Part shown: one piece after another, positions 6,223-41,843 of the stretch | Layout of the letters: each line of letters begins with the position of its first letter | How positions within the stretch are numbered: the first letter of the stretch is position 1 | Virus record (IMG/VR): IMGVR_UViG_3300032323_002950 | Span: 1 to 64,000 of that record | DNA from: a virus | Reading direction: 5' to 3' (one strand) | Length of the DNA stretch: 64,000 nt | Position numbers and translations under genes: made by a program | The notes under the pieces: model-generated | Database searches by the model: none | What the model was told of the DNA's origin: nothing | Seen by the model: only the letters and a program-made list of their open reading frames with translations

Positions 6223-6224
6223 AA

Positions 6225-10736: not shown

Positions 10737-10773
10737 ATTTTACAATTTTTTATTTAAATCTAAATAAAACATA

Positions 10774-11565: not shown

Positions 11566-11647
11566 ATTTAATTTATTTGTTTATTTATTTGTTTATTTAT
11601 TTTATGTGATAATGTAATTAAATGACATAAAAAGTATATTTATAACA

Positions 11648-12364: not shown

Positions 12365-12365
12365 A

Positions 12366-13124: not shown

Positions 13125-13125
13125 A

Positions 13126-22463: not shown

Positions 22464-22469
22464 CAATAA

Positions 22470-24380
22470 ATGTCGCAGCAGAATATAAATCAATATGTGT
22501 ATAAAAAATGGTTTATTACTAATAGTAAGCCAATTTTTGATATTTCCTTAGCATCGGATGAAAGGGATTATAACGAAGAAGTAGTATTTTCAACTCAATT
22601 AATTGGTTTAAATGATGGGAACAGATTACCAATTCACTTTGATTTAAATAACTCAGGTTCGTCACAAATGATGACAATAAATTATGGTGATTATTTTACA
22701 GGTAATACATTAGTTTCTTTAAATTATTATAATCCAAATAATGATGATTTAAATTGCTATACCGCATCCACTTTATGTGATATAGGACTAACAGGTATTG
22801 ATAATGGATTAACCACACAAATCTCAGGCGAAACTTTGTACTACACAATGGGGTTATTTACAGGTACTTCTAAATGGGATAGATACCATTATGACAGAAG
22901 GATGAAGTATATTCAAATTACGGGTAATACAAATTCTGTAAATAGATTTTCAGGGAATACAAAACAAACAGTTTATAATATTGTTACAAAAACAGGAACT
23001 ACCGAAGGATTTTATCAACAACTGTATGGTGGTTTTTATCAGGGATTTTTTAAATTACTTGGATATGATTATGAAGTATTCCCAAATAGAACTAACAAAG
23101 GATGGTCGGCTGAAATGCTACTTAGACCAAGATTAGAAAATGAGTATTATCCTGAACCAAATCAAACAACTTTAAATGAAGTTTACCCTCAAAATAAAAA
23201 CACGTTTTTTTATTTTGGAACAAGGGCGGAAAACAAATTTTACCACCACGCAGATGGATATCCATTAAGTGATAGTGGTTATACAAGAGTGACATCAGGA
23301 CTATCCGAATGTTTTAAAACTTGTGCATGTTCAAATACGGGAGTTACAAATTCTAGATGTATTGAAGTTTATGAACCATTAAGATATACCGAACAACATA
23401 ATACATCGTGTAATTGTGGATGTAATGCAACAACACAAGTACCAAATGGAGATAAAAATCCATTTTTAGATACTTTATCTAATTCATTCTCTTTGAGATT
23501 TTCAGGAGACCCATCAAATCCTAAGATTTGTGTTAAAGTATTAAAATTTACAGGAGGGTGTGAGGTAACAGGAACTTGTCCGACAACGGGTATTACATAC
23601 ACAACAGGATACACAATTTCAGAGTACTGCTCAACTAATACAATTAACCAATATTGTGAAACTGTTAACCCAACTTATTTAAATCAAGAACATTGGTTAC
23701 TTGTTGATTGTGTGTGGGAAAGAAACACTTACTTTGACGAATGTGATTCATATTATCGTGGAGGACTTGGGTTAATATCAAACACGTATTATGTCAATTC
23801 TTTATCCAATAATACCGTATCGTTAATTGAGCCTCCTTTCACCCATACTGGTGGAACAATACCTGAACAAATTGAAGTAATTGATTTAAATGAGAAATGG
23901 TTATCTGAGGTAGATTACAGATTAGGTAGTTTAAAAATATATGTTAATGGAAGATTGTTTTTTGTCATTAATGGATTTGAGGAGATTATACCAAGAGGAT
24001 TAAATACTGAAAAAGAAAAACAGATTGGAGTACCATTTAATATTAGTTGGGGTGGAGGAACTCAGGGGTTAAGAGAAAGTTTAACATTATCAGGTTGTCC
24101 TACTACAATAGAAAATTTAACTTATCAACAAGATGCTGAATGTATGCCAAACGAGACATTATCAGGTACATCATTATCGGCTCTTACCACAAATATTTTA
24201 TTAGAACCGACATTTGCGGGAACATTTGAGGGAGGAATTTCTCAATTTAGAATGTATACTGAACCACTAACTTACGCGGAAATTGTACATAATTTTAATA
24301 TACTAAAAAATAAATTTTATTTGTTTGATACAAGGTGTCCAGATTGTTCTGGACTAATTAATGATATAACGTATGGCTGA
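22470..24380 (+). CDS. Cys-rich virion protein with LamG/concanavalin-like C-terminal elements
   Basis: [33 protein letters not shown]; many Cys. Confidence 0.55.
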
Positions 24381-26649
24381 AATAGTTTTTAATTCGGAAA
24401 ATTTCCAATCGTACTCTTTTGATTTGTTTTTTTTAAACACTTCAACAAATGTTAATACCCAAATTGGTAGTAGTTTGAATTTTCCATATACCTATACTTA
24501 CGTTAATTGTTATACGGGAATTTTTTCTTTTTATTTTTCAGAAATTGACCAAACTTTAATTGTTAATTTTAGTTGTGAATCCCCAACACCTACACCAACA
24601 AAAACAGTAACCCCAACGCCATCAATAACTGCAACAATTACGTTATCAAATACTGTGACTCGAACTCCAACAACAACAACAACACCTACCAACACCCCAA
24701 CTAATACTGTGACCAAAACCCCAACAAGAACTCCAACAGTAACTCCAACAATAACAATAACCCCAACAAACTCAGAAACACCTCAACCTTCTAATACTCC
24801 AACAAAAACTCAAACCCCTACTAATACTCAAACCCCATCTAATACTCCGACAAATAGTGTTACACCATCTAATACAGTGACTCCAAGTAATACTTTAACA
24901 AGTACCTCAACCCCCACTAATACTCCAACAAACACGGTTACCCCAACTGTAAGTAGGTCATCTGAACCTCCCAATCCGTCAAATACCCCGACTAAAACTC
25001 AGACACCAACTAATACTCAAACACCTACTAATACTCCAACTAGTACTGAAACTCCAACCAATACCCCAACTCAAACAATTACGGTAACAAGTACAAATAC
25101 TCCTACTATCACTAAAACAAATACTGCAACTCCGACAACAACCGAGACTATTCAACCATCAAACACTCCAACAAAAACTCAAACTCCTACTAATACAGTC
25201 ACCTCAACTAATACTCCGACTAATACTGTAACGACAACTAATACTCAAACTCCTACTAATACCCCAACACCAACAGTTACTTCAACAGTTACTCCAACAG
25301 TCACTCCAACACCAACAGTTACAAGAACACCGGATGAAAGTCCAAATCCGACTAGTACTGCGACAAATACTGTGACACCAACTTTAACAGTCACTCCAAC
25401 TAATACTCCAACAAATAGTGTTACGCCAACAAACACCATAACACCAACAAATACGTTGACTCCGACTAATACTGCAAGTAACACACCGACTAATACTATA
25501 ACTCCAACAAATTCTGAAACTGCACAACCAAGTAATACACCAACACCGACTAATACTCCGACACCGACTAATACCTTAACCAGTACCTCCACCCCGACTA
25601 ATACAACAACAAATACGGTTACTCCTACTAACACTCCATCAAATGAACCAATTAATCCCTCAAATACTCCAACTCAAACTCAAACTCAAACACCGACCAA
25701 TACTCCAACTAATACTATGACACCAACTAATACTCCGTCAATTACTATAACAAGAACTCCAAGTGGGACAAATCAACCAAGTAATACTCCAACAAAGACA
25801 AGTACGGTAACCCCAACTAACACCCCAACAAATTCAGGCACACCAAATGAAACTCCAACAAATACTCCGACTAAAACACCGACAAAAACACCTCAACCAA
25901 GTAATACTCAAACACCAACATTAACAAAAACACCGACAAATACACCAACCAAAACCGTAACTCCAACAAATCAGGTAACCCCAACTCCGACTGCGACAAG
26001 AACTCAAACCCCACAACCATCTAACACTCCAACCAATACACCAAGTAAACAAATTAAGAGCGCTAAATTTGTACCTGCGGTTGACACATATTTGAATACT
26101 TCAACCAATTTTATAGTTAATAGAAGTTTTTTTATTTCTGATACATTTTATCAAAATTGTTCATTTACTATTGGAGGGTATAAGCCCGGTCCTATTATAA
26201 TTACAATGACTGTAAACATATTAGCGGGAGATACAATTAGTGATATACCTTCGAGAATTAAAAATCAGGCTCTTCAAATAAATGATGGAGGTCCGTTTGA
26301 CAATTTAAATGGGGTTATGACAGTATTAACAATAGGGCAAGATGAGTATATTACCTTAATAATAACTGATGAAACTGACAATACGTGGTCATCAGTTACG
26401 GCAACATTTGCTCAGTTCCCAACAACAGGATATCAGTTTTCAAAAGTTCAAATTGGCACGATAGGGGTAAATAACATAAATTATCCAAGCGGTTCATTTA
26501 TTGTCGGCGAAATTTATTCGTTATCAACTGATGGAGCGTTTAATGGATGTGTTATTGTTAACCAAACAGAACAAGGTAATGTTGTCACATATGATGATGC
26601 AACGGTAACTGGTGGACCATTCGATACTTTAAAAGATTGTACAGGATAA
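24373..26649 (+). CDS. Mucin-like Thr/Pro-rich putative virion surface protein 1 (758 aa)
   Basis: About 490-aa (T-x)n tract between small globular N- and C-terminal domains; no signal peptide evident. Confidence 0.7.
24580..26046 (+). repeat. Low-complexity Thr/Pro coding repeat (TPTNT-type) with PSN nodes
   Basis: Degenerate ACN-CCN-ACN-AAY codon repeats. Confidence 0.9.
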
Positions 26650-26705
26650 ATTAATTCTACTATTTAATTTATATTAAGTTGTCTCTATTTTTTGATTAAA
26701 AAAAT

Positions 26706-27950
26706 ATGAGCATTTTTATTCAAATAGCATCTTACAGAGACCCTGAATTAATTAAAACAATCAAATCCGCAATTGAAAACGCGAAAAATCCTGAAAATTT
26801 GGTTTTTGCAATTGCAAGACAATTTCATCCTGATGATAAATTTGATGATTTATCTGAGTATCAAAATGATGAACGTTTTAGAGTTTTAGATATTCCTTAT
26901 TTAGAGTCAAAAGGTGCTTGTTGGGCAAGAAATCAAATCCAACAACTTTATAAAAACGAAAAATACACTCTTCAAATTGATTCTCACATGCGTTTTGCAG
27001 AAAATTGGGATGAGGGAATGATTAATATGATTAAACAACTTCAAAAGAAGGGTCATAAAAAACCACTTCTTACAGGTTATGTTTCATCTTTTAATCCCGA
27101 TAATGACCCTCAGGGTAGAATTACCGACCCTTGGAGAATGACGTTTGATAGATTTATTCCCGAAGGTGCTGTATTTTTTTTACCTGAAACAATACCTGGA
27201 TGGCAAGACTTAACTGAACCTGTAACATCTAGATTTTATTCTGCTCACTTTTGTTTTACTCTTGGAAAGTTTGCAAAAGAAGTTCAACATGACCCCGATT
27301 ACTATTTTCACGGAGAGGAAATATCAATCGCCGCAAGAGCGTATACTCACGGGTATGACTTATTTCACCCTCATAAAGTTCTTATTTGGCACGAATATAC
27401 CCGTAAAGGAAGAACTAAACAGTGGGATGATGATAAGAAATGGGTTGATAGAAATAACTTATGTCACAAGAAAAATAGAGCTTTGTTTGGAATGGATAAT
27501 GAGGAACCTATGGAACATGGAAAATATGGTTTTGGTAAAGTAAGGACACTTCGTGATTATGAAAAATACTCAGGTTTATTATTCTCTCGTAGAGCGGTAC
27601 AACAAGAAACAATAGATAAAAAATATCCACCAAACACATATAACTACACATCGGAGGAAGAATGGATGGACTCATTTGCATCAATCTTCAAACACTGTAT
27701 TGATATTGGATATTCGCAAGTTCCTGAAAATGATTATGATTTTTGGGCGGTTGCATTCCATGATGAAAATGATGAAACAATTTATAGAAAAGACGCCGAT
27801 AAAAATGAAATCCTAAGAATGAAAAATGACCCTGATGGATATTGTAAAGTTTGGAGAGATTTCCAAACAACTAAACAACCAAAATATTGGGTCGTTTGGC
27901 CACATTCAGAATCAAAAGGTTGGGGACAAAGAATGACAGGTAATTTATGA
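26706..27950 (+). CDS. GT60-like polypeptide N-acetylglucosaminyltransferase (Gnt1/GlcNAc family)
   Basis: IFIQIASYRDPEL, GACWAR, LQIDSHMRF..WD, F.GEEI...R.YTHGYDLFHP, WHEY. Confidence 0.85.
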   Translation: MSIFIQIASYRDPELIKTIKSAIENAKNPENLVFAIARQFHPDDKFDDLSEYQNDERFRVLDIPYLESKGACWARNQIQQLYKNEKYTLQIDSHMRFAENWDEGMINMIKQLQKKGHKKPLLTGYVSSFNPDNDPQGRITDPWRMTFDRFIPEGAVFFLPETIPGWQDLTEPVTSRFYSAHFCFTLGKFAKEVQHDPDYYFHGEEISIAARAYTHGYDLFHPHKVLIWHEYTRKGRTKQWDDDKKWVDRNNLCHKKNRALFGMDNEEPMEHGKYGFGKVRTLRDYEKYSGLLFSRRAVQQETIDKKYPPNTYNYTSEEEWMDSFASIFKHCIDIGYSQVPENDYDFWAVAFHDENDETIYRKDADKNEILRMKNDPDGYCKVWRDFQTTKQPKYWVVWPHSESKGWGQRMTGNL

Positions 27951-29047
27951 AAAATAGATATGATTTTTTAATAGTTGGGTCGGGTCTTTTTGGTTCAGTT
28001 TGTGCGAGAGAATTAACTGACTTAGGTTACAAATGTTTAGTAATTGATAAACGAGACCATATTGGGGGAAATTGTTTTACTAAAAAAATAGAAGGAATTA
28101 ATGTTCACATATATGGTCCTCATATTTTTCACACGTCAAACGAAAGAGTATGGGAATATGTTAATAGGTTTATAAAATTTAACAATTATAGACATCATGC
28201 AATTGCAAACTATAAAGATGAATTATACTCCTTACCTTTCAATATGTTTACTTTCAATAAACTTTGGAATGTAAATACTCCAAAAGAAGTTGAAAAAATA
28301 ATAGATAAACAAAAATTTAAAGGTGTTCCGACTAACCTAGAAGAACAAGCGTTATCATTAGTTGGTAGTGAAATATATGAAAAACTAATAAAAGGGTATA
28401 CCAAAAAACAATGGATGAAAGACCCAAAAGACTTACCTCCATTTATCATTAAAAGATTGCCGGTTAGATTAACATTTGATAATAATTATTTTTTTGACAA
28501 ATACCAAGGAATACCTGAAAATGGATATACTGAGTTATTTGAAAAATTATTAGATGGAGTTGAAGTTAAATTAAACACAGATTTTTTTGAAGATAAAGAG
28601 TATTATAATTCAATATGTGATAAAGTAATTTATACAGGACCTATTGATAGATTTTTTGATTATGAATTTGGAGAATTGGAATATAGACCACTTAATTTTG
28701 TTCATAAAGTTTTAGATATTGAAAATTACCAAGGGGTTGGGCAAATGAATTATACCGATATTAATGTTCCCTATACTAGAATTATAGAACATAAACATTT
28801 TGAAAATTCTACATCTGAAAAAACAATAATTACTGAGGAATATCCAGTTGAGTGGACAAGTGAATCTGAACCATATTATCCAATTAATGATGAAATTAAT
28901 CAAAAAACACTTCAAAAATATATTGATAAAACAAATAAAATTAAAAATGTAATTTTTGGTGGTAGATTGGCGGAATATAAATACTATGACATGCATCAGG
29001 TGATAGACTCTGCATTAAAAAAGGTTGACGAAATAGTTAAAAAATGA
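27947..29047 (+). CDS. glf: UDP-galactopyranose mutase
   Basis: IVGSGLFG, HIGGNC, YGPHIFHT, YTKKQW, YQGIP, YTRIIEHKHF, EPYYP, GRLAEYKYYDM. Confidence 0.95.
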   Translation: MKNRYDFLIVGSGLFGSVCARELTDLGYKCLVIDKRDHIGGNCFTKKIEGINVHIYGPHIFHTSNERVWEYVNRFIKFNNYRHHAIANYKDELYSLPFNMFTFNKLWNVNTPKEVEKIIDKQKFKGVPTNLEEQALSLVGSEIYEKLIKGYTKKQWMKDPKDLPPFIIKRLPVRLTFDNNYFFDKYQGIPENGYTELFEKLLDGVEVKLNTDFFEDKEYYNSICDKVIYTGPIDRFFDYEFGELEYRPLNFVHKVLDIENYQGVGQMNYTDINVPYTRIIEHKHFENSTSEKTIITEEYPVEWTSESEPYYPINDEINQKTLQKYIDKTNKIKNVIFGGRLAEYKYYDMHQVIDSALKKVDEIVKK

Positions 29048-29988
29048 GAAATTTATTAATACATAATCCTTGTAATGAACAAACAAGATATTATCGAGAA
29101 TATAATTTGTTTTGGGACGAATTAACTGATGAATTAAAAAAAAATCATAATGTTAGTGAAAATAGATATTTTGAGGAGGCTCATTACAGTAGAATGAAAA
29201 TTCAATTACAAAAAAGAATTCATGACTATTTGGAATTAATGGAATGTGAATATGTGATTGAGGATTTAGACAGTGGAGATTTTTGGATTTTATCAGTTGC
29301 TGAACAAATGACTGGATGTATTCTATTAGAACAATCAAATCCTCATCTTAAAAAAGTTTTATATTCACAATATATCCCTGACCAAATAGTCCATCACACT
29401 GGTAAAAATGCTAACAAATATTTACCATGGATATTTTTCCAACAGGATGTGGTTGATTTGGAAAAATATTATGAAGAACGAAAAGAAAAAAATAATTTAA
29501 TACCTAAATTATTTTTTAAGGGAAATACTGAATATCGTCCAATTGTTAATTTTATAGATAAAGAAATTTTATCTGAAACTAACAAAATTGAAAATAAAAA
29601 CTATTTTGATTATTTAAGTGACCATGAAATATGTTTATCAATAGGAGGTGTAGCAAACGGGGATTTATGTTATAGAGATATTGAGTGTATGGCAATAGGA
29701 GTACCTATTTTAAGATTTGATTTTGTAACAACTTTAAATCCTGCATTAATTCCAAATTATCACTACATATCTATACCAATTCAATTAGATTTACCAAAAA
29801 AGAGAGACGTACTCAAGGATAGATTAGGCAATGAAACTCACGCTAAATTAATTGAAACCCGTTTTAATGAAATAATAAATAATAAAAACTTTTTAAATTT
29901 TATTTCAAAAAATGCAAGAGAATATTATAAAAATTATTTATCTAAAGAATCCAGAGTTAAACATACTTTAAATTTATTAAAAATATAA
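29044..29988 (+). CDS. Putative GT-B glycosyltransferase (GT47/GT90-like C-terminus)
   Basis: KLFFKG, CLSIGG, CYRDIECMAIGVP, LIPNYHYI, ISKNAREYY. Confidence 0.55.
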   Translation: MRNLLIHNPCNEQTRYYREYNLFWDELTDELKKNHNVSENRYFEEAHYSRMKIQLQKRIHDYLELMECEYVIEDLDSGDFWILSVAEQMTGCILLEQSNPHLKKVLYSQYIPDQIVHHTGKNANKYLPWIFFQQDVVDLEKYYEERKEKNNLIPKLFFKGNTEYRPIVNFIDKEILSETNKIENKNYFDYLSDHEICLSIGGVANGDLCYRDIECMAIGVPILRFDFVTTLNPALIPNYHYISIPIQLDLPKKRDVLKDRLGNETHAKLIETRFNEIINNKNFLNFISKNAREYYKNYLSKESRVKHTLNLLKI

Positions 29989-29992
29989 AAAA

Positions 29993-30550
29993 ATGAAATT
30001 TGAAAAAATAACAAACGAAATTTTAGACAAAATTGATTTAGAAAAATTGTCTAAAAAAATAAAAAATGATGAACACAGAACTTATTTTTTGGATAAATCA
30101 TCTAAGGAACATTATAGACTTTTATCTCATATCTCTGAAACAAACAATAAAACTTATTTTTTGGATGTTGGTACCTTTAAAGGGTTATCCGCATTGGCTT
30201 TGGCTAAAAATAAAAGTAATTTTGTGTACTCATTTAATTTAACACCTCAATTGGATTTAGAAAAGTTACCAAAAAATGTTGAGTTTATTATCGGAAACAT
30301 TATCGATGGTAACTACAAAAAAATGATACTAAAATGTAAATACATATTGTTAGATACACAACATACTGGAGAGTTTGAAATTGAATTTTATAATTATTTA
30401 AAAGATATAAAATATAATGGTTATCTTATTTTAGATGACATAAAATTAAACAAGGAGATGATTGATTTTTGGAATTTAATTGACCTACCTAAAAAAGATA
30501 TATCATTTTTAGGACACTCAACCGGAACCGGAGTTGTTTTTTTTAATTAA
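29993..30550 (+). CDS. Class I SAM-dependent methyltransferase
   Basis: LDVGTFKGLSA, LLDTQH, GYLILDDI. Confidence 0.75.
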   Translation: MKFEKITNEILDKIDLEKLSKKIKNDEHRTYFLDKSSKEHYRLLSHISETNNKTYFLDVGTFKGLSALALAKNKSNFVYSFNLTPQLDLEKLPKNVEFIIGNIIDGNYKKMILKCKYILLDTQHTGEFEIEFYNYLKDIKYNGYLILDDIKLNKEMIDFWNLIDLPKKDISFLGHSTGTGVVFFN

Positions 30551-30559
30551 AGTTAATTT

Positions 30560-31051: not shown

Positions 31052-31054
31052 TTT

Positions 31055-31654
31055 ATGGCAAACATTACAGAATTAATTGATGTATTAAATGTAAAGAAAA
31101 AATATAATTTAAATTTCTTTATTGAAACCGGTACAGGTATGGGTGAGAGTATTGAAAAAATAAAAGACATTGATTTTAATTTAATACAAAGTTGTGAAAT
31201 AGAACCATCACAATTTGAAATTTTATGTAAAAAATTTATCGGGGATAATATAAAAATTCATTTGGGTAAATCTACAGAATGTTTACCAAAAATGATTGGG
31301 AATATTGATGGTCCCTCTTTATTTTTTTTAGATGCTCATTTTCCTGGACAAGGCTATGTGACAAATGATTTTATTACCTCTAAATATACATTGGATGAAA
31401 CAATACCTTTAAAATTGGAATTAAATATTTTAGAAAACTGGAAACACATTAAAGAAAGTGTGGTAGTAATTGATGATTTAAGAATATACAAAAAAAATAA
31501 CTATGTTACAGGTGATTGGGAATATGGTAGAGAAGAGCTACTCAAAAATCCTGACCCATCTTTTTTGGACGATTTTCTTAAAGAGTCCCATGAAAAAATA
31601 GAGTCTAATATACAACAAGGTTGTGTTTATTATTACCCCAAACAAAAAATATGA
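31055..31654 (+). CDS. Methyltransferase-like protein
   Basis: FIETGT, FFLDAH, VVIDDLR. Confidence 0.65.
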   Translation: MANITELIDVLNVKKKYNLNFFIETGTGMGESIEKIKDIDFNLIQSCEIEPSQFEILCKKFIGDNIKIHLGKSTECLPKMIGNIDGPSLFFLDAHFPGQGYVTNDFITSKYTLDETIPLKLELNILENWKHIKESVVVIDDLRIYKKNNYVTGDWEYGREELLKNPDPSFLDDFLKESHEKIESNIQQGCVYYYPKQKI

Positions 31655-32328
31655 AATTTTCGCATAAAAGAACCGGAACAATTGGGGATTTAGCAACTTC
31701 TTTTCCAATATTATCATCACTATCAAAAAAAGTTGGACCAATAAATCTAACTCTACCAATATTATATGATAATTCCAATTTTAATGGATTTAAAGAATTT
31801 TTAGAATATCAAGATTTTATAGGTTCTGTGGATTTTGATGACGAAGAAGCGGATTTTGATTTACAATGTCATCCAATATATACAGATGGGAATAAAATAC
31901 CTGTACAGACATATTATGTAAAAGATAAAATAAAAAAAGAATTGGGTATTGATATTGAGGTCGATTATAACCTTAAACTAAAGGTACCTTATTTAAAGGT
32001 ACCTGATGATATAAAAAATAAGAATATAATCGTAGATAGAGTCAAAACTCAAGTTTTAAAAAAAACAAAAATGTTCGATGATGATAATAAAAATTATTGG
32101 ATATTGCCTACAATACCATCTGAGTCTATGGGAAATACATTAATTTATAACATTAATGTTTGTATTCAGACTACAAAAGATTTAATAGTAACACCCACAG
32201 GATTACCTATAATCCTACAATTTTTTGATAAACCAATGAAAATATATCAATTAGACCGACCAGGAGAATTGGCTAAAGATTTCGCCTATTTCCCTGAAAA
32301 TAAAAATTTAACATTTATAAAATTATGA
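31651..32328 (+). CDS. GT9-like glycosyltransferase (divergent)
   Basis: Start moved to ATG 31651 (ATGA overlap); N-terminal GTIGDL...P..L resembles the GT9 IGD motif. Confidence 0.4.
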   Translation: MKFSHKRTGTIGDLATSFPILSSLSKKVGPINLTLPILYDNSNFNGFKEFLEYQDFIGSVDFDDEEADFDLQCHPIYTDGNKIPVQTYYVKDKIKKELGIDIEVDYNLKLKVPYLKVPDDIKNKNIIVDRVKTQVLKKTKMFDDDNKNYWILPTIPSESMGNTLIYNINVCIQTTKDLIVTPTGLPIILQFFDKPMKIYQLDRPGELAKDFAYFPENKNLTFIKL

Positions 32329-33314
32329 AAAAACAAATAAGAATAACTAGAAGTGGTTTTCCAGGAGTGGGACAATGGTCATGGATTAATTTTTTCAGAG
32401 ATATTTTGAGCGAAAAATATGAAGTAATAGTAGATTCTGAAAATCCTGATATAATTTTTATCACTAATTTACATTACGATGAAAACGAAATAGACCCTTA
32501 TACAGGTTCTAAACACCCTAAAATTCATGAACATCCGAATGCCAAAAAAGTTTTTATTAGTGGTGAGGTTTCTGATGGAATGAATTATGTTAACGCTGGA
32601 GAAAATTGGTACGCTTTAGGATATCAACCATATAAACACGATAGATTTTTAAGATTCCCAACATATGTTTTGGATGCATTTACATTACATAATGAGGGGG
32701 GTATGTTTGATTCTCCATTTGGGTGGATAACTAAAAAACGAAATTATGAAGAAACTATTAAGACAAAAAAACATTTCTGCTCAATAGTACAAGCAAGTTT
32801 TAATGAGATTAGAGATAAAATATTTGATGAGATAGAAAAAAAATACTATATAAAAAGTTCAGGACCGTATAGACCAACTATAAAAGAAGAAGAACATTTA
32901 AATAAACTTAAATATCATGATTACTCCAACAAAGAATATTTGGGAAAAATAGATGGTTTAACATACAGGGACAAAGTAAATTTTTTTTCAGATTCTATTT
33001 TCAATATATCGGTACAACTTACAGATGCTGATTATTTAACCCAAGAAAAAATAATACACGCGTTTGCCGCAAATTGCATACCTATTTATCACGGTAACAG
33101 ATATATTTTACAGGAGGGATTTAATCCTGAATCTTTTGTAAATGTGTTTGATTTTGAAAATTATCAGGATTTATTTGAAAGATTAGACCAAATTTACACA
33201 GACAAAAACCTATTAAAAAAATATTTAGAATCTCCAATTTTTGTTGATAACAAACTACCAATTTATTTTGATAGGGAATATGTCCTAAACTTTTTTGAAA
33301 AAATGATAGAATGA
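32325..33314 (+). CDS. GT10-like alpha-1,3/4-fucosyltransferase
   Basis: KVFISGE, KKHFCS, K..F...FNI, YLTQEKIIHAF...IPIYHG, FNPESFVN. Confidence 0.75.
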   Translation: MKKQIRITRSGFPGVGQWSWINFFRDILSEKYEVIVDSENPDIIFITNLHYDENEIDPYTGSKHPKIHEHPNAKKVFISGEVSDGMNYVNAGENWYALGYQPYKHDRFLRFPTYVLDAFTLHNEGGMFDSPFGWITKKRNYEETIKTKKHFCSIVQASFNEIRDKIFDEIEKKYYIKSSGPYRPTIKEEEHLNKLKYHDYSNKEYLGKIDGLTYRDKVNFFSDSIFNISVQLTDADYLTQEKIIHAFAANCIPIYHGNRYILQEGFNPESFVNVFDFENYQDLFERLDQIYTDKNLLKKYLESPIFVDNKLPIYFDREYVLNFFEKMIE

Positions 33315-33982
33315 ATTACGTATCTTTTTGTCTTTATGGTGATGACCCAAAATACTACATTGGAGCAGAACGGAACCTTGAAATGATTAATGAATTACTA
33401 CCAGAATGGGAGACACTAATATATTATTCTCCAAATAATTTTTTAAGTGAATATTTAGAAAAATTAATAACTTTGGGGGCTAAAATGATTAATGTTGAAT
33501 CACATCCACTTAGAGAATTTTTAGGTTACCCTATGTTTTGGAGATATTTAGTTTTTTTTGAAACAGGTAATGCTATTATAAGAGATTTAGATAGTAGAAT
33601 TTCACCAAGAGAAGTCTCCTATATTAATAATTGGTTGGAAAGTGATAGGGATTACTTTATTATTAGGGACCACCCATGGCACTCCCCAGTTCCAGGGGGG
33701 CTAGTTGGTTTAAAGATGAATAACTCAAATATAAAAGAATTTTTTAGTGATTTTGTTAAAAACAATGGTCTTAACTGGGGTGTCGACCAAGAGATGCTTT
33801 CTAAATATTTTGAATCAGTAGATAAATCTAATGTTTACTATTGTGGTTTTGATGACCAAACAAACTATATACGTAGAGATAATGAAAATTTTTTTATAGG
33901 TATTCAATTAGATGAGAATGATAATCCAATAATCCCAAGCGCAACTTTGGCAATAGATTTTTTAAAAAGTATGAGACTATGA
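33311..33982 (+). CDS. Putative GT-A-like protein, paralog of 14599..15249
   Basis: VSFCLYGDDPKY, MFWRY, IRDLDSR, IRDHPWH, GVDQEML. Confidence 0.55.
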   Translation: MNYVSFCLYGDDPKYYIGAERNLEMINELLPEWETLIYYSPNNFLSEYLEKLITLGAKMINVESHPLREFLGYPMFWRYLVFFETGNAIIRDLDSRISPREVSYINNWLESDRDYFIIRDHPWHSPVPGGLVGLKMNNSNIKEFFSDFVKNNGLNWGVDQEMLSKYFESVDKSNVYYCGFDDQTNYIRRDNENFFIGIQLDENDNPIIPSATLAIDFLKSMRL

Positions 33983-34869
33983 AATTAAACGATGATATTT
34001 TAAAAAATTATGATATTTTGTTATTATTCACTAGTCAAACTGGTTTAGGTGACAACTATGGATGTTTAATATCCGCCTCTGAAAGTTATGTTAAATTAAA
34101 AGAGAATGGACTCAGAGTCGTTTCAATCTCTAATCAAGAGTTTGACCTAAAATTACCGGGTAAACCTAGTTTGAGCGACTATCAAAATTTGTTCAATTAT
34201 GATTTTTTTGAAAATAATATTTTCTTCACATTTGAAAATTTTACTTGGGTTAATGAGAGACCATACAATGAGGATTTAAATTCATTGTACAATCATTACC
34301 TTAATATTAATCATTCTCATCACATTTACATAAATAAAAATTGTAATTTTAATGAAGTTAAAGAAATTATAGATTCTTGTAATATTTTAGGATATTCTCA
34401 CGAGTTGATTTCTAATTTAGAAATCAACACACCCATAAAATTTACTAGTTTAATAAATAAAGATATAGAATATAACTCTAGTTTGATTTCCTCAAAATAT
34501 AAAAAAATAATAGGTTTTCACGTTAGATTACCCGATGGTGGTAATTTGTATGATAATTTAAATGACACTATTAGTAATGAAGTAAAAAAAATAATTAATC
34601 AAAATAATGACTCTCATTTTTTAATTTCAGGAAAAGGACTTAATTTTGATAATTTTGAAATTGATTCAAATAAGTTCATAAAAATAGACAAAAAGTATAG
34701 TGAGGATAAAATTGAAAATTTAAAATATGACTTATTAGAAATGTCATTATTCTCTTATTGTCATGAAATATACACCTATTGTACTTGGAAAAGTGCCTTT
34801 ATGACATATCCAATATTACATAACAGACAAAATAAAAACTATAGAGAATTAATTAAATCTTTACTATGA
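33979..34869 (+). CDS. GT11/GT23/NodZ-like fucosyltransferase (divergent)
   Basis: GLGDN start motif, IIGFHVRLPD (HxRxxD), D(L)..MSLFS.C...S.F. Confidence 0.55.
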   Translation: MKLNDDILKNYDILLLFTSQTGLGDNYGCLISASESYVKLKENGLRVVSISNQEFDLKLPGKPSLSDYQNLFNYDFFENNIFFTFENFTWVNERPYNEDLNSLYNHYLNINHSHHIYINKNCNFNEVKEIIDSCNILGYSHELISNLEINTPIKFTSLINKDIEYNSSLISSKYKKIIGFHVRLPDGGNLYDNLNDTISNEVKKIINQNNDSHFLISGKGLNFDNFEIDSNKFIKIDKKYSEDKIENLKYDLLEMSLFSYCHEIYTYCTWKSAFMTYPILHNRQNKNYRELIKSLL

Positions 34870-35579
34870 AATATGTTTATTGTACTGTCGCTGTTGGCGA
34901 CAGGTATTACAAATCGGCCGTAAAGTTCGCAAAAGACCTGAACAAAAAAACTAAAGACCATCATGTGTTAATAGTTACTGACCAAAAATTAAAAAAAATT
35001 AAAAATACAACATTTTTAAAACTACCAAAAGAAGAAATAAAATTCTACCCGAATGGATGTTTTAATTATAATCTAAAGTATTTCCCGATTAAATGTGCTA
35101 TTGATTTAAAACCTAAATTTATATTGTTTTTTGATTCTGATTGGATAATAGATGAAAATTACCATCAGGAAAAAATTGACAAATTTTTAAATTTTTTTGA
35201 AATAAGTGAATACGACTTTATTTTTGAAAGACCTCATGGTATTGGGGAAAGTAAAAAAGATTGGAACAATTGTTTTTGGAGGCATAAAATAGAACCTTAT
35301 AAACTTATGGAAACTGACTTTTATGATAAAGGTCACGTATGTAATGAACAATTTTTAGCTTTCAAAAACAATAAGAAATTAAAAATATTTGTTAAAGCTT
35401 GGAAAAAAAGAAATAATTTCTCAATTGAAAACAACATTTGGCCATTTGCGGAAGGGTTAGAAATTGGAATGTCTTCTATTGATGCTGAAATGAATTTTAC
35501 GATAGATGGTATGTATTTGTTAAATTCTTGCTTTAAATTTTATTCAAATAGTTCTGACATACCATTAACAAGATTTTAG
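34866..35579 (+). CDS. Putative GT-A glycosyltransferase
   Basis: TVAVG.RY, LIVTD, LFFDSD DxD motif. Confidence 0.5.
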   Translation: MKYVYCTVAVGDRYYKSAVKFAKDLNKKTKDHHVLIVTDQKLKKIKNTTFLKLPKEEIKFYPNGCFNYNLKYFPIKCAIDLKPKFILFFDSDWIIDENYHQEKIDKFLNFFEISEYDFIFERPHGIGESKKDWNNCFWRHKIEPYKLMETDFYDKGHVCNEQFLAFKNNKKLKIFVKAWKKRNNFSIENNIWPFAEGLEIGMSSIDAEMNFTIDGMYLLNSCFKFYSNSSDIPLTRF

Positions 35580-35592
35580 AATAAATTAAAAT

Positions 35593-37260
35593 ATGAAAAT
35601 AACATTAGTAACAGGTTTATGGGATATTGGTAGAGACCAATTAGATGAAGGATGGTCAAGAAATTACCAACATTATTTAGATAAATTATCACAATTATTA
35701 TCCGTTGAAAATAATTTAATAATATTTGGGGATTCTGAATTGGAAGAATTTGTATTCAAAAAAAGAACCCACAATAACACTCAATTTATTTTAAGACAGT
35801 TATCATGGTTTAAAGAAAATCCATATTTTGAAAAAATTCAAAAAATTAGGAGTAATGATAATTGGTTATCACAATCAGGATGGTTAAAAGAATCAACACA
35901 AGCCAAATTAGAATTATATAATCCATTAGTAATGTCTAAAATGTTTCTTTTAAATGACGCAAAAATTTTAGATAAATTTAATTCTGAAATGTTATTTTGG
36001 ATTGATGGTGGCATAACAAACACGGTACATCCCGGATACTTTACACACGATAAGGTATTAGATAAAATATACGATTTGACCAATGATTTTATGTTTATCT
36101 GTTTTCCATATGATGCTGAAAAAGAAATTCATGGGTTTTCTTATCCTGAAATAAATAACTGGGCGGAAGAAGACATTAAATTAGTTGCACGGGGAGGATT
36201 TTTTGGCGGAAAAAAAGAAAATATTACTGAACTAAACTCCATATATTATGGATTATTAAATGAGACATTAGATAAAGGTTTAATGGGTACTGAGGAATCA
36301 ATATTTTCAATAATGACCTATAAATATCCAAAACTAATTACATATTATGAAATCGAAAATAATGGATTGATTGGTAAATTTTTTGAAGATATTAAAAATA
36401 ATAACGGAATCCCAAAAAAAATAAAACCCACTAAACAAATAACAAATTTATCAAAAATTGGTTTATATGTTATTGGATTTAATAGTCCAAATCAATTAAA
36501 GACGCTTATTCAATCTTTTGTTGATTATGATTTTAATTTTTTAAATGAACCTAAAAAATATCTGTTAAACAATTCAACTGATAGGTCAACAGACGAGGAA
36601 TATATTAGAATATGTGAACAACATGAATTTGAAATAATTTGGAAACATGAAAATTTAGGGATATGTGGTGGGAGACAATTCATTGCTGAACACTTTGATT
36701 CAACAGACTTGGATGGATATTTCTTTTTTGAAGACGATATGTTCTTTTATCCAAAAAAAGGAGAAGTTTGCAGAAATGGATTTAATAGATATATTGATGA
36801 CTTATATGAAAAAGTTATTGAGATAACTGAAAAAGAAAATTTTGATTTTTTAAAACTTAATTTTTCTGAATTTTTTGGTGACAACTCAACACAGTGGTCT
36901 TGGTATAATGTGCCCCAAGTTGTTAGAGAAGAATATTTCCCAAATAATAAAAAACTACCTGAACAAGGATTAGACCCAAACGCCCCAAGAACAAAATATA
37001 ATACGATTAAAACCCATAAAGGGTTACCATATGCAGATGGAGATGTATTTTATTGTAATTGGCCTCAAATTGTGACAAGAAAAGGAAATAAAAAAATGTT
37101 TTTAGAAACAACATGGGCTCACCCATTTGAACAAACATGGATGAGTCACATGTTCCAAGAAACTAAAAAAGGTAAATTATACCCTGGTATTCTTTTACTC
37201 ACACCTACTGAACATGATAGGTATGAACATTATGACAGGAGTATAAGAAAGGAGAGCTGA
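35593..37260 (+). CDS. HtrL/YibB(WlaTC)-like glycosyltransferase fused to a GT-A domain
   Basis: ITLVTGLWDIGR, FWIDGG, GGFFGG, GTEESI; C-domain NLGICGGR, FFEDD. Confidence 0.7.
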   Translation: MKITLVTGLWDIGRDQLDEGWSRNYQHYLDKLSQLLSVENNLIIFGDSELEEFVFKKRTHNNTQFILRQLSWFKENPYFEKIQKIRSNDNWLSQSGWLKESTQAKLELYNPLVMSKMFLLNDAKILDKFNSEMLFWIDGGITNTVHPGYFTHDKVLDKIYDLTNDFMFICFPYDAEKEIHGFSYPEINNWAEEDIKLVARGGFFGGKKENITELNSIYYGLLNETLDKGLMGTEESIFSIMTYKYPKLITYYEIENNGLIGKFFEDIKNNNGIPKKIKPTKQITNLSKIGLYVIGFNSPNQLKTLIQSFVDYDFNFLNEPKKYLLNNSTDRSTDEEYIRICEQHEFEIIWKHENLGICGGRQFIAEHFDSTDLDGYFFFEDDMFFYPKKGEVCRNGFNRYIDDLYEKVIEITEKENFDFLKLNFSEFFGDNSTQWSWYNVPQVVREEYFPNNKKLPEQGLDPNAPRTKYNTIKTHKGLPYADGDVFYCNWPQIVTRKGNKKMFLETTWAHPFEQTWMSHMFQETKKGKLYPGILLLTPTEHDRYEHYDRSIRKES

Positions 37261-37287
37261 TTATCATTTTTGGCGTATTTATTTAAT

Positions 37288-37641
37288 ATGGAATTTTTTA
37301 TTAAAAAAAACGCCACTCTCCCACTTCTAAAAATGCAAATAGTTAAGGATGGTGAAAGCTCGTTGGATAATTTTTCTGACGTTATTGAAACTGCTTTGAT
37401 TTATTTTTCTATGAAAGATACTTTGGATGGAAGACAGGTTATACTTAATAAAAAGGGAGGGTTTGTTGAGAAGGTATTTATTGAACCAAATGCAAAATTA
37501 GAGTATTATATCTACTATAAATTTTCTAAGTTTGATACTCGTCAGATTGGAAAATTTGAAGCGGAATTTACTTTAATTACTGACGAAGGTGACTATATTT
37601 TACCACATAGGGAAAAATTATATATTAATATTACTAATTGA
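37288..37641 (+). CDS. Small Ig-like adaptor protein (BppU N-terminal-like)
   Basis: Start moved to ATG 37288 (TATTTAT 5 nt upstream); [11 protein letters not shown]...Y.F...DT...G.FEAEF. Confidence 0.55.
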
Positions 37642-40600
37642 TGGAGTTCATTATAAGTCAAAATTCAACGTTATCTAAATTACGAATTGAGGTCACAAAA
37701 GACGGCAGGTCAGACTATGACAGACTTTCCAATCTATCAAATACAAGTAATATAACCTTAGATTTAATTAATACTGATAACGGATTAGTGTATTTGTCTA
37801 ATCTTACTTGTAGTGTTGTTAGTGAAATCAATCAATTAAATAGTTCAGAAACTTTATATTTTATAGAGTACCAATTTTCAAAAAATCAAACTTCACAGGT
37901 TGGGACTTATGAAATAATTATTACAATTGTAGACTCACAAGGAACGGTTAAATTAGATTTAAGTGGTAAAAATTATCTAACAATACAAGATAGTTTTTCA
38001 TTAGATGGTTACGGACCAACAACAGGAACAACTACTGACCAACCATGTTGTGTCGATGAGTTTGGCATTCCAACAAAAACTCCTACTCCATCCCCATCAA
38101 TAACACCAAGTATTACACCTTCAATAAGTCTATCTCCGTCAATAACCCCTACAAATACAATTACCCCAACAATAACAATATCAAATAGCCCAACAAAAAC
38201 TCCTACTCCATCCGTAACACAAACTAAAACTCCTACTCCATCCGTAACACAAACTAGTACTCTAACACCTACTACTACACAAACTCCAACAATTACTAAA
38301 ACATCAACTCAAACTCCAACAAATACTCCGTCAATAACAGTTAGTTCAACTCCTCCTGAAACTCCAGACCCATCAGGTACTCCGACTAATACACCAACTT
38401 CAACAAATACCCCTACTCCAACTATTACCTCAACGGTTACTAATACACCGACTAATACCCCGACAGGTTCAGTAACTCCAACTATTACATCAACTAATAC
38501 TCAAACTCCTACTGTAACAAATACTTCTACCGTAACATCAACTCCACCTGAAACTCCTGACCCATCAGGTACTCCAACCAAAACTCCAACACCAACTAAT
38601 ACCCAAACACCTACCAATACCCCTACCAGTACTGAAACACCTACGAATACTCCAACAAACACACAAACTCCCACTACTACGAATACTCCCACACAAACTC
38701 CTACTGTAACAAATACTTCTACCGTAACATCAACTCCACCTGAAACTCCTGACCCATCAGGTACTCCCACCCAAACTCCAACTTCAACAAATACTCCTAC
38801 TCCAACTATTACATCAACTATTACTCAAACTCCAACAGTGACTTCAACAGTGACTAATACTCCTACTATTACACCAACAAGTTCAGTGACCCCTACTGTA
38901 ACAAATACTTCTACTGTAACATCGACTGTTTCTGCAACTCCTGACCCATCAGGTACTCCAACCCAAACTCCAACTAGTACAGTTACTCCTACCCCAACAG
39001 TGACTTCAACGGTTACCAATACTCCCACTATCACACCAACAGGTTCAGTAACTCCAACTATTACATCAACTAATACTCAAACTCCGACCAACACTCAAAC
39101 TCTAACAGTTAGTTCAACTCCGCCTGAAACTCCTGACCCATCAAATAGTCCAACTCAGACACCTACCTCTACTCCAACAATAACTCCATCTGAAACACCC
39201 ACTCAAACTCCGACTAATACTCAAACTACAACATCGACTTTAACACCGACTCAAACTCAGACATCAACTTTAACACCAACAATTTCAGTATCCCCAACTC
39301 AGACCCCCACTAATACACCAACACTGACTCCGTCTGAAACCCCACCTGAAACCCCACCTGAAACCCTAACACCCACACCAACCCAAACTCCAACTTCTAC
39401 AATTACACCAACATTGACACCTACTTCTACAATTACTCCAACAATAACTCAGACTCAGACACCAACATCAACTTCAACACAAACTCCTACTCAAACTCCT
39501 ACTCCTGACCCATCAGGAACTCCGACTCAAACTCCAACTAACACTCAAACACCAACTAATACTCAAACACCAACGTCTACAATCACACCAACAATAACTC
39601 CAACTAACACTCAAACACCAACAGTTACTTCGACAGTCAGTAATACCCCAATTGAAAGCTCAACCCCTACTCCAACTCCGACACCAACTATAACACCAAC
39701 TATAACCTCAACTTCCACACTAACACCAACAACAACTCAGACACCAACTATAACACCAACAACAACTCAGACACCAACTATAACACCAACCGTAACTCAA
39801 ACTCCACTATGTGATATGACTTTATTGTTATGGGGTGACCCTTCTAATCCAGGTTCAGGTACATTTTTAAATAATAATACCCAATTCACTTTTGACACTG
39901 GTGATTTAACATATTATAATACTATTTTACCAGAACAATCAGTAATTACTATACAATTTGTTGATAGGCAATCATATGCGACATTTGTGGTTACCTCAAA
40001 AGAAAATGTTACCGGAACACTAGTCTTATTAACCGGAGAGGGTACTATTGTCGGTAGTCCAAATGGTCAATATTTTGCGGCATGTCAGGTTGTGAATGAA
40101 ACTAAAACTCCGACCCCAACGTCAACTCAAACACCGACACCAACACCTACTCAAACTCCAACAATAACTCCAACTTCTACAATTACTCCAACTTCTACAA
40201 TTACACCAACTCAAACCCCAACTTCTACAATTACACCAACTCAAACACAAACTTCTACAATTACACCAACTCAAACACAAACTTCAACACCGACTCAAAC
40301 TCCAACTCAGACACAAACTCCAACTCAGACACAAACTCCAACTCAGACACAAACCCCAACTCAAACTCAAACTCAAACACCAACTTCTACAGTTACACCT
40401 ACACAAACTCAAACTTCAACACCAACTCAAACCCCAACTCAAACTCAAACCCCAACTCAAACTCAAACTCCAACTCAAACTCCAACTCCAACCTCTACTC
40501 AAACTCCAACTCAAACTCCAACTCCAACCTCTACTCAAACTCCAACTCAAACTCCGACAAGTACAATTACTCCAACCATTACACCTACCCAAACTCCAAC

Positions 40601-41813
40601 AAGTACGATTACTCCAACCATTACACCGACAAGTACAATTACTCCAACCATTACACCGACAATTACAATTACTCCAACAAAAACCCAAACTCCTACTATC
40701 ACACAAACTATAACTCCATCAAACACACCTCCTTACCCGGCATTAAGAGAAGGTGGTCCTTATGTTGGCACAACATTTTTTAGTTTTCAAATAGCGGGGG
40801 GAACTGGATTTCCAGGATTCCAAGTTAATGGATTTTATTATCAATGCGTATCAAATAATCAATTTAGAGTTAGTAGTTTACTTACTAATGAAGAAATTGC
40901 AATTTTGACTATACCTACAGGATTGTTTTTGTCTAATGGTTATTCATTTAATATTGTTGGAACAGATGTATATATAACACTAAATGGTCAGCAAACAATA
41001 TTGATACTAAACACAATAACAAACACGTTCACTCAATTTACAAGCACGTCGTATAACGCGTCAAATTTATGGACATCGAATACAAGCCCAACCGCTACAA
41101 AATTTTACAGTATAAATCGCTCAGGTGCAACCAGTAGACTTTCTATCACTAATAAATCCACAGGTGTTGTGACTCAGAGTACATATACAATTGGATTTGG
41201 TAATTGTTCGGTCTATAGACCATTAGGTGGTACAGGACAAGGAGAGTTTTGGTTTTTTACATCTTTATCTGGCCTATTAGGATACCGAATTGTTGACCCT
41301 TTGAACGATACGACATTATTATTTTCTACCACAACTAATGTGTTTACCCAGGGATTACCATATTGTGCAATATATAATGCTGAATATGACATTATTATGG
41401 CGTTTACTAAAGGTGCCACAAGTATTATGTATATAATTGATTGTGCCAGCAGGACATTAAATTCGACTTTAGCCCTTACTACTGCAGGGGTTTCTGTAGG
41501 TATGGTAAACAATGTCGTTTACAACCAATTTAACAATGATTATTGGTGTGTTGCCGAAATCTCCTCTACTCTTTCGTCATCACAATCTTTTGTTATTGTT
41601 GTTAAAGTAGTAGCGTATGCTCCACCATTAACTCCATTCGGTTTTAATACATATAGAATATTTAAAGGAAATTTACCAAATACTGGTAATCTTAATTTTT
41701 TATCAGGTATTGGATTTACTCAATATGGAGCAGTAATCCCATATGGTCCAGTTAGTGCTACTGTAGGTTCAATACCTAACGGATATTATTTGTATTCATT
41801 AACTCCTTCTTAA
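37641..41813 (+). CDS. Mucin-like Thr/Pro-rich putative virion fibre protein 2 (about 1390 aa)
   Basis: N-terminal domain similar to the upstream small protein; two T/P tracts separated by a ~95-aa domain; C-terminal beta-rich domain; TGATG overlap. Confidence 0.7.
38068..40730 (+). repeat. Thr/Pro(/Gln) coding repeats with 192-nt higher-order period; unique insert at about 39810-40100
   Basis: Identical 74-nt copies at 38502-38575 and 38694-38767; TPDPS nodes every 192 nt. Confidence 0.9.
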
Positions 41814-41814
41814 T

Positions 41815-41843
41815 TTGACATTTACCAATTCGTAAATTACACT
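41815..41843 (+). promoter_or_regulatory. Sigma70-type promoter TTGACA-N17-TACACT for the DNA polymerase
   Basis: Perfect -35 at 41815-41820, 17-nt spacer, -10-like hexamer at 41838-41843. Confidence 0.6.

Follow-up and report, generated by a model that had tools for sequence, protein, structure and literature searches.

The stretch of viral DNA analysed here, referred to as the window, comprises 64 kb (64,000 nucleotides, nt) of the 72.5-kb IMG/VR record IMGVR_UViG_3300032323_002950, the completeness of which is estimated at 25%. Its G+C content is about 30%. This study concerns positions 22470 to 41813, where 16 open reading frames (ORFs) follow one another on the + strand and where two proteins with long threonine- and proline-rich (Thr/Pro) tracts bracket a cassette of 12 ORFs headed by a glycosyltransferase (GT) of family GT60. 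In an earlier note this run was read from the sequence as a phage-encoded system for the O-glycosylation of virion fibres, and all 16 ORFs were recovered at the positions listed there, with two starts corrected slightly. The locus was compared with 80 GT60-centred loci from IMG/VR, where 192 stretches among 2.9 million contigs matched GT60, and with bacterial loci of the same enzyme family.

The first Thr/Pro protein (24373..26649, +) has 758 amino acids (aa) and consists of a short N-terminal domain, a single tract of 507 aa (aa 59-565, nt ~24547-26067) with 41% T and 18% P, and a C-terminal domain of 190 aa. The second (37638..41813, +; ~1390 aa) is listed with 1391 aa from a TTG start that is probably wrong, the true start being probably the ATG at 37641. 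Here an immunoglobulin-like (Ig-like) N-terminal domain is followed by a tract of 580 aa (aa 159-738), a middle region of ~70 aa, a second tract of 233 aa (aa 809-1041) and a C-terminal domain of ~350 aa. The tracts amount to 813 aa with 43-45% T and 19% P. The lengths proposed before, about 490 aa of (T-x)n in the first protein and about 790 aa of T/P repeats in the second, therefore come close to those measured. Threonine recurs with a strict period of 2, since the probability of T after T is 0.86-0.98 at position +2 versus 0.00-0.05 at +1 and +3, and the residue in between is P, N, Q, S, V, I or K. The tracts are also visible in the DNA by a raised G+C content, degenerate repeats and a strongly negative GC skew (-0.47 over the tract of the 758-aa protein and -0.65 at the gene of the 1391-aa protein). 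Both proteins thus carry the Ser/Thr/Pro-rich tandem repeats by which mucin-type acceptors are recognised and are candidate acceptors of O-glycans, the second being a candidate fibre as well. An ice-binding TxT array was set aside as an identity for the tracts, about one third of the x positions being proline, and antisense ORFs such as 25245-25634 were discarded as 'VGV' mirror frames of the repeat.

Directly upstream of the second Thr/Pro gene lies the gene of a 117-aa protein (37288..37641, +). Its true start is the ATG at 37288 and not the listed TTG at 37270 (123 aa), since the relative L007 has an upstream stop. It and the N-terminal domain of the 1391-aa protein are paralogues (31% identity, E 2e-18), and homologues of this domain lead Thr/Pro ORFs in 35 loci. 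Many of the small proteins that stand alone terminate in ...PCC, at the very point from which the long forms continue into the tract, and they therefore resemble versions reduced to the N-terminal domain. No match to the small protein was obtained in Pfam, PHROGs or NCBIfam, which leaves its former label 'adaptor' without backing, and its AlphaFold2 (AF2) model shows an Ig-like beta-sandwich (predicted local distance difference test, pLDDT, 86.6). The best PDB matches of this model in Foldseek included the baseplates of NF5, DT57C and 80alpha and the T5 tail tip, and in BFVD it matched BppU, baseplate, minor-tail and tail-fibre entries at E about 1e-4. Using VIA-align, baseplate chains of 80alpha and TP901-1 scored Z 8.3 and NF5 Z 8.0, next to antibody V domains with Z 7.5-8.2. 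At most, these matches hint that the Thr/Pro protein may be a fibre anchored at the particle through its N-terminal Ig-like domain. A tblastn search of isolate phages with the C-terminal domain of the 1391-aa protein found nothing, and in the ESM Atlas this domain gave scores of at most 0.91 to mixed families, with weak leads of beta-propeller type only.

At the opposite end of the run, a conserved 636-aa protein is encoded (22470..24380, +), whose stop overlaps the start of the first Thr/Pro gene by 8 nt. Homologues were found in 29 of the 80 GT60 loci. In eight distinct relatives (L013, L021, L023, L030, L032, L033, L080 and L084) the homologue itself carries a Thr/Pro tract, and because these proteins run on into the tract, the 636-aa and 758-aa genes appear to be parts of one unit. 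The designation 'LamG-like' given to the 636-aa protein is unsupported: there was no match in Pfam (E up to 5), PHROGs or NCBIfam, a profile of 18 homologues found nothing in the PDB at E up to 10, and tblastn against isolate phages was equally negative. Its AF2 model, built from the alignment of 18 sequences, reached a pLDDT of only 32.7 and was too poor for a fold search, and a distant LamG-like fold is thus possible.

The gene following the first Thr/Pro ORF (26706..27950, +) encodes the proposed initiating enzyme. It matches PF11397 with E 7.4e-69 (233.3 bits versus a cut-off of 21) over model positions 1-44 and 93-349 of 352, and the phage GT family phrog_24687 with E 7.8e-173. The DxH motif, which replaces DxD in GT27 and GT60 according to the available text of PMC7185993, is D92-S93-H94, and DSH is invariant in 60 distinct sequences including those of the phages XacN1 and RAS14. 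The GT60-like nature of this ORF, for which a profile search had been recommended, is therefore well founded, and the enzyme is predicted to be soluble. A sequence search of the PDB with the ORF gave no match. Characterised members of GT60 are polypeptide alpha-N-acetylglucosamine (alpha-GlcNAc) transferases. In Dictyostelium and T. cruzi they initiate glycans of the mucin type, and a hydroxyproline of Skp1 is the target of a soluble relative (PMC8724618, as far as its text was available). The prolyl hydroxylase family PF13640 had no match in the window contig, in the phage records G001 (92% complete, 288 kb) and G002, or in XacN1 and RAS14, whereas two control genomes were positive. A dedicated prolyl 4-hydroxylase, the mark of a Skp1-type system, was thus missing from all five GT60 phage records, and because of this threonine is the likelier predicted acceptor in these phages than hydroxyproline.

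The GT60 family is large, with at least 7,576 protein clusters at E <= 1e-5, and includes forms of different architecture. Proteins of ~2000 aa (P0168-P0181 and similar) contain 2OG-Fe(II) domains of the prolyl-hydroxylase type (PF13640/PF13661) in the same chain as GT60; four tandem GT60 domains are seen in P0169 and P0174, and many of these proteins also carry GT2 and AhpC-TSA domains. Two of them are named as metagenome-assembled genomes (MAGs) of Rickettsiales or Alphaproteobacteria, so that the group is partly bacterial by its source names. By their domain content, these long proteins look like a fused Skp1-like pathway in prokaryotes. Another clade, P0122-P0157, has two tandem GT60 domains in one protein of ~870 aa, and its loci L057-L065 have neither HtrL nor a Thr/Pro ORF within 10 kb.

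The last gene of the cassette (35593..37260, +) encodes a 555-aa enzyme, here called HtrL555, with an HtrL_YibB domain at aa 2-250 and a GT2-like C-terminal half. Its HtrL-like character, already proposed, is borne out by PF09612 (E 8.9e-19, 68.5 bits versus a cut-off of 24.1), and TIGR02192, named 'WlaTC/HtrL family glycosyltransferase' at NCBI, matches with E 7e-20, which is under the equivalog cut-off of that model. Among 30 aligned homologues, HtrL_YibB is matched by all and Glycos_transf_2 by four, and the C-terminal half contains an invariant E380-D381-D382 (FEDD motif); for these reasons the enzyme is regarded as bimodular. A profile of the family gave only chance-level matches in the PDB. 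In 60 of the 80 IMG/VR loci HtrL555 is encoded no more than 10 kb from GT60, sometimes directly adjacent and in either order, and full-length homologues with 39-41% identity exist in XacN1 (ORF330) and RAS14. In five proteins of 1066-1190 aa (P0237-P0241), GT60, the HtrL domain and the C-terminal half are fused into one chain. From these patterns, GT60 and HtrL555 are a conserved pair and predicted pathway partners. Longer homologues of ~780-800 aa in L008, L009, L047 and L073 have an apparent extra N-terminal methyltransferase domain; among the alignment members with a methyltransferase match, one is of the TylF and another of the FkbM type. These long forms suggest that the same polypeptide may methylate the glycan.

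Three of the 30 HtrL555 homologues also match, weakly (best E 2.4e-4), the family of TET-associated glycosyltransferases (TAGT), which act on DNA. The enzymes of the cassette might then attach sugars to the bases of phage DNA, the kind of hypermodification found in T4 and in phages that glycosylate 5-hydroxymethylcytosine. Phage enzymes of the GT-A fold which glycosylate DNA are documented (bioRxiv 10.1101/2023.12.21.572611), and genes of the thymidylate-synthase family occur in four of the five GT60 phage records, but at distances of 60-100 kb from GT60. Moreover, neither HtrL, PF11397 nor GT60 is mentioned in the available text of that preprint, GT60 is a family of polypeptide transferases (PMC8724618, same portion of text), and the bacterial loci described below pair GT60 with Thr/Pro proteins. 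A role in DNA modification is thus considered very improbable. The search of the GT60 phage records for Tet_JBP found no match and was uninformative, the control genomes having none either.

The ORFs between GT60 and HtrL555 were scanned, like the whole cassette, against Pfam, PHROGs and NCBIfam, and three of them (29044, 31621 and 33979) additionally against the sequences of the PDB. Directly after GT60, a UDP-galactopyranose mutase (Glf; 27947..29047, +) is predicted to supply UDP-galactofuranose; it matches TIGR00031 with E 6.6e-126 (420 bits versus a cut-off of 304) and PF03275 with E 3.6e-80, which confirms the name glf. Equally well placed is the GT10-like enzyme at 32325..33314 (+), related to the fucosyltransferase family, whose C-terminal domain matches PF00852 (E 5.5e-8, 33.1 bits versus a cut-off of 23.9) and which has homologues in 10 loci. 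Three methyltransferases had been named. The one at 30560-31051 (+) is firm (Methyltransf_23, E 2.7e-9, above cut-off), that at 29993-30550 (+) is methyltransferase-like by a weak match (Methyltransf_24, E 9.5e-4, 20.5 bits versus a cut-off of 26.3), and the third, at 31055, matched nothing in the three libraries. This last ORF (199 aa) and the following one at 31621 (235 aa), together spanning 31055..32328 (+), have no homologue in the 80 loci either. The label 'GT9-like' for the latter found no library or PDB match, and with the annotated GT9 of XacN1 it shares only a short N-terminal motif (E 0.17). The 314-aa protein at 29044..29988 (+), formerly called 'GT-B', has no library match and reached only chance level against the PDB (phmmer, best E 0.084), and it recurs in relatives' cassettes, with homologues in 15 of the 80 GT60 loci. 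Three further ORFs of 223, 296 and 237 aa (33311..35579, +) match no family. Those at 33311 and 34866, each labelled 'GT-A' in the note, lack any match in Pfam, PHROGs and NCBIfam and recur in 13 and 10 of the 80 loci, respectively. The one between them (33979-34869), labelled 'GT11-like', is an orphan which matches only itself among 5.8 billion proteins and has no match in the PDB. The picture of 12 contiguous glycan genes is hence supported for five genes, weakly for a sixth, and for the remaining six there is no library match. PHROGs likewise gave nothing for eight window ORFs lacking an assignment and for six ORFs upstream of a giant Thr/Pro ORF in G001. A scan of 22100-42000 for promoters and terminators was uninformative, with counts the same as in shuffled sequences.

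The association of GT60 with Thr/Pro proteins was quantified in the 80 IMG/VR loci. To count as Thr/Pro, an ORF had to be 100 aa or longer and to have no fewer than 60 residues inside 40-aa windows with minimum contents of 40% for T+S, 25% for T and 10% for P. Such an ORF was present within 10 kb of GT60 in 58 of the 80 loci, and after dereplication at 90% GT60 identity in 31 of 44 lineages. Forty lineages had 3 kb or more of flank, and in 17 of them a Thr/Pro ORF on the strand of GT60 ended directly upstream of it, no more than 600 nt away. By the same criterion, none was found in 80 PhoH-centred loci of related phages, which served as control (1.53 Mb). A reverse test also speaks for the association: of 80 loci picked by the DNA pattern (TPTN)2TPT, 14 (11 contigs) contained GT60 and 22 some gene of the module, whereas GT60 as such was met in only the 192 stretches mentioned above. 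The co-occurrence that had been named as a check on the proposal is therefore real for these 31 lineages, and it does not extend to the other 13, which have no tract nearby. The gene order is also recurrent: the 636-aa protein, a Thr/Pro ORF, GT60, a set of variable enzymes and HtrL555 are followed by one or two copies of the small Ig-like protein, then by a Thr/Pro ORF headed by the same domain and by PolB. In five GT60 records lacking a nearby tract, the whole sequence was inspected and contained TPTxTPT elsewhere, with 22 to 596 matches versus 0-1 for the reversed pattern. The most extreme case is G001 (L301/L302, 107949-124364), where 5,091 of the 5,472 aa of a single ORF are tract. At least three more Thr/Pro ORFs follow this giant one (to position 131000), all of them ~150 kb from the GT60 gene of G001.

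A second and different source of information is given by bacteria. Among 52 GT60 loci from GTDB, 26 contain the GT60-HtrL pair. Some apparent Thr/Pro ORFs in loci of high G+C content overlapped the GT60 gene in another frame; frames overlapping the pair were dropped, a filter that also removed a genuine-looking ORF in L322. In the 26 paired loci 10 Thr/Pro ORFs were then counted, every one of them in the 102 kb that lie no further than 2.5 kb from the pair and none in the 201 kb beyond. The carrier proteins are unrelated to those of the phages and to one another: a Gemmatimonadaceae protein joins a PqqD domain to the tract, a carrier from a Saprospiraceae MAG joins the tract to a sorting domain of the type IX secretion system (T9SS), and those of Cytophagales are short proteins with an arginine-rich N-terminus. 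In a Burkholderiaceae group with a more distant GT60 (38-46% identity), neither HtrL nor tracts are present. Some of the low-G+C contigs assigned to MAGs may be mis-binned phages, which does not apply to the high-G+C and megabase contigs. Two Saprospiraceae MAG contigs with a G+C content of 0.33-0.34, L304 and L311, encode a GT60 66-67% identical to that of the window; the T9SS domain of the neighbouring Thr/Pro protein is above the Pfam cut-off in L304, which sits on a 230-kb contig, and below it in L311. These two loci could be either a hint of a Bacteroidota host or mis-binned phage. The recurrence of the pairing in bacteria appears to be the strongest argument that the two enzymes are tied to the tract itself.

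A mucin-type system is recognised by an initiating transferase genetically tied to its acceptor, and such a tie is seen here in the adjacency of the genes, in the 58 of 80 loci against none of the controls and in the bacterial recurrence. The explanation which we consider probable, with room for doubt, is that these genes form a jumbo-phage module for the cytoplasmic, GT60-initiated O-glycosylation of the phage's own Thr/Pro stalks. It is supported by three independent comparative lines, namely the positional association in phages, the recurrence in bacteria and the conserved and sometimes fused partner enzyme. In the proposed pathway, GT60 would transfer an N-acetylhexosamine (by family, alpha-GlcNAc from UDP-GlcNAc) onto threonine hydroxyls of the stalks, and the HtrL/GT2-like enzyme would add the next one or two sugars. 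The variable enzymes would then extend the chain, for instance with galactofuranose and 6-deoxyhexose, and cap it by methylation. Attached to the particle by the Ig-like N-terminal domain, the modified proteins may form glycosylated fibres that are long, stiff and resistant to proteases, and since the genes lying between GT60 and HtrL are exchanged, the type of glycan would vary from one phage lineage to the next. For the core of the earlier interpretation this means that the link between GT60, cassette and Thr/Pro proteins has gained comparative backing, while half of the enzyme labels went unconfirmed.

Several observations weigh against this explanation. Beyond the 80 loci of the reverse test, among 48 further contigs bearing the repeat, GT60 was located elsewhere on the contig in six and was not seen in 42, most of which are fragments, and all three near-complete phages of 27-31 kb have the repeat and lack GT60. 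Conversely, 13 of the 44 dereplicated GT60 lineages are those noted above, with no Thr/Pro ORF within 10 kb, L083 retains the full synteny and lacks such an ORF, and the giant neighbouring proteins in XacN1 and RAS14 are not Thr/Pro-rich, these two phages holding only short TPTxTPT tracts (51 and 22 pattern matches). Synteny within one phage clade is not independent evidence. The assignment to GT60 was made by Pfam profile and motif rule, the characterised enzymes being known by family description. Six of the 12 cassette ORFs (29044, 31055, 31621, 33311, 33979 and 34866) have no assignable function, the weak TAGT matches of HtrL555 belong here as well, and the Ig-like domain ties with antibody V domains (Z 7.5-8.3), so that a virion location is suggested at most.

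Part of these observations would be expected if the enzymes glycosylated other virion proteins, such as capsid, sheath or folded fibre ends, and if the Thr/Pro tracts were plain spacers in a hypervariable fibre region. XacN1 and RAS14 keep the enzyme pair next to giants of other composition, L027 and L034 share with L083 a pair with no Thr/Pro ORF within 10 kb, the small phages have tracts in the absence of GT60, and the mycobacteriophage precedent, cited in the available text of PMC11256854, puts the glycans on the capsid. On the other hand, the bacterial pair adjoins Thr/Pro proteins which are unrelated and have nothing else in common, the five GT60 records with no nearby tract carry TPTxTPT elsewhere at counts far from the 0-1 control matches, and characterised GT60 enzymes act on Ser/Thr/Pro-rich acceptors (PMC8724618, same portion of text). 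We therefore regard other virion proteins as unlikely targets, if the first to be thought of after the stalks. That the bacterial pair occurs beside Thr/Pro proteins is explained less well by each of the rival readings than by glycosylation of the tracts.

The wider gene content places the system in a large phage. Family scans of the window identified tail sheath, tube, baseplate hub, PolB, helicase and PhoH, so that its phage origin, as assumed in the note, is upheld by contractile tail genes, PolB and PhoH; tRNA genes were not found in the window. Since relatives of this phage span 288-321 kb, the window is, as judged by genome comparison, a fragment of a jumbo phage. The tail sheath (50541-53807) has 1,088 aa, of which residues 6-1086 align to a profile of 496 positions, implying very large insertions, and its best match among isolates is a Microcystis phage with 31% identity.

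A second glycan gene cluster (5419..19764, -), outside the region treated in the note, was detected by family scans. It comprises a GT2, a GT1-like enzyme, a Glyco_trans_1_2 protein, a double GT2 protein, a 404-aa phage GT, an FkbM methyltransferase, an epimerase/reductase of the short-chain dehydrogenase/reductase (SDR) family and a GDP-mannose 4,6-dehydratase (Gmd; TIGR01472, E 3.2e-117, 391.6 bits, slightly below the cut-off of 415), with PhoH, dUTPase and exonuclease genes interspersed. Judging from their families, Gmd and the SDR enzyme could provide GDP-6-deoxyhexose to the GT10-like enzyme. About 25 glycan genes thus lie within 32 kb, an unusually large enzyme set, bracketed by the two candidate acceptors.

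Such a gene inventory also recalls clusters for bacterial surface polysaccharides, and the cassette might remodel envelope glycans of the host (lipopolysaccharide, capsule or S-layer glycan), for example to block superinfection. Clusters for O-antigen and capsule typically contain Glf, Gmd, GT2, GT10 and FkbM-type methyltransferases, HtrL/YibB is named after a bacterial protein family, and PHROGs places such GTs in the class 'moron, auxiliary metabolic gene and host takeover'. However, the general family scans of the window ORFs named no flippase, polymerase, ligase or lipid-carrier transferase, and membrane-like segments are absent from all glycan enzymes between 5419 and 37260. On account of these two observations the logic of the enzyme set appears to be cytoplasmic and directed to proteins, and soluble enzymes in this combination fit a direct, stepwise glycosylation of protein in the cytoplasm. 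In addition, phages of very different G+C content and host, those of Xanthomonas and Stenotrophomonas as well as the present one with 30% G+C, all retain the GT60-HtrL pair, and the envelope glycans of their hosts should differ; the HtrL555 family is ~99% viral in the ESM Atlas, and the link to Thr/Pro ORFs would be left unexplained. Envelope remodelling is accordingly held to be rather unlikely.

If the stalks are glycosylated, the consequences would concern surface sticking, resistance to proteases and grazers, and recognition of large environmental phages, and soluble cytoplasmic enzymes of mucin-type O-glycosylation working in bacteria would be at hand for glyco-engineering. A family studied so far only in protists would turn out to stand at the conserved start of a pathway that, in phages and bacteria, goes together with mucin-like repeats. 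A wider proposition, tentative and on balance doubtful, is that jumbo phages build a viral glycocalyx in the bacterial cytoplasm, with a GT60-then-HtrL/GT2 core on hundreds to thousands of threonines of mucin-like fibres and with swappable GTs and methyltransferases defining a glycan 'serotype' of each lineage. The same core would serve Thr/Pro proteins of several bacterial phyla and would be the prokaryotic counterpart, possibly the source, of the mucin-type and Skp1 pathways of protists.

Among known systems, the GT60 transferases of protists share with the phage enzyme PF11397, the DxH motif and Ser/Thr/Pro-rich repeats as presumed acceptors. They act in the Golgi, whereas the phage GT60 is soluble, has no signal anchor and is expected in the bacterial cytoplasm. 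Unlike them it is paired with an HtrL/GT2-like enzyme, its activity being predicted. The Skp1 pathway consists of a prolyl hydroxylase, the GT60 enzyme Gnt1 and then the bifunctional GT2+GT74 enzyme PgtA, as set out in the available text of PMC8724618. On that description, soluble sugar-nucleotide enzymes, a GT60 followed by a two-domain transferase and occasional fusions are common to both, and the order of GT60 and bimodular enzyme in the phages resembles the succession of GT60 and bifunctional transferase there. The two differ in that the first domain of the phage partner is assigned to HtrL_YibB, and in that the Skp1 acceptor is one hydroxyproline whereas that presumed in the phages is hundreds of threonines in a repeat.

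Four phages in culture have a GT60-HtrL pair, the Xanthomonas jumbo phage XacN1, Xoo-sp13 and the Stenotrophomonas phages CM1 and RAS14, and their GT60 homologues have 46-50% identity (XacN1 ORF334, 49.6%). In phages of the XacN1 type, the pair is situated in a region of tail and DNA-replication genes, and the XacN1 cassette has a carbamoyltransferase where the window has Glf, GT10 and methyltransferases. For XacN1 virions, at least two Schiff-positive protein bands are described in the text and in the legend of Supplementary Fig. S4 of PMC5852040, and ORF328 and ORF334, the latter being the GT60 homologue, were proposed there as their makers. In the available parts of that paper the GT60 family is not recognised and the glycoproteins are not named. 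By analogy, this staining adds to the support for glycosylation of virion proteins by the phage module. Literature searches, by which subscription journals were mostly not covered, found no description of a GT60-Thr/Pro phage system, and one paper mentioning GT60 and phage only lists GT60 among viral carbohydrate-active enzymes in the text available.

Phage particle glycosylation is regarded as rare (PMC5852040, same parts). In the mycobacteriophages Che8 and Rita (Freeman et al. 2023), phage GTs glycosylate the phages' own structural proteins, giving a glycan shield, according to the accessible text of PMC11256854; the substrates named there are major capsid proteins, in contrast to the Thr/Pro stalks which are the candidates in the window. 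The chlorovirus PBCV-1 encodes most of the machinery that glycosylates its own structural protein outside the endoplasmic reticulum and Golgi (PMC5852040, as above). It differs from the present case as a virus of eukaryotes with the major capsid protein as target, and neither a GT60 nor a mucin-like acceptor is described for it in those parts. Going by its genes, the system in the window would join these cases of virus-encoded glycosylation of virion proteins.

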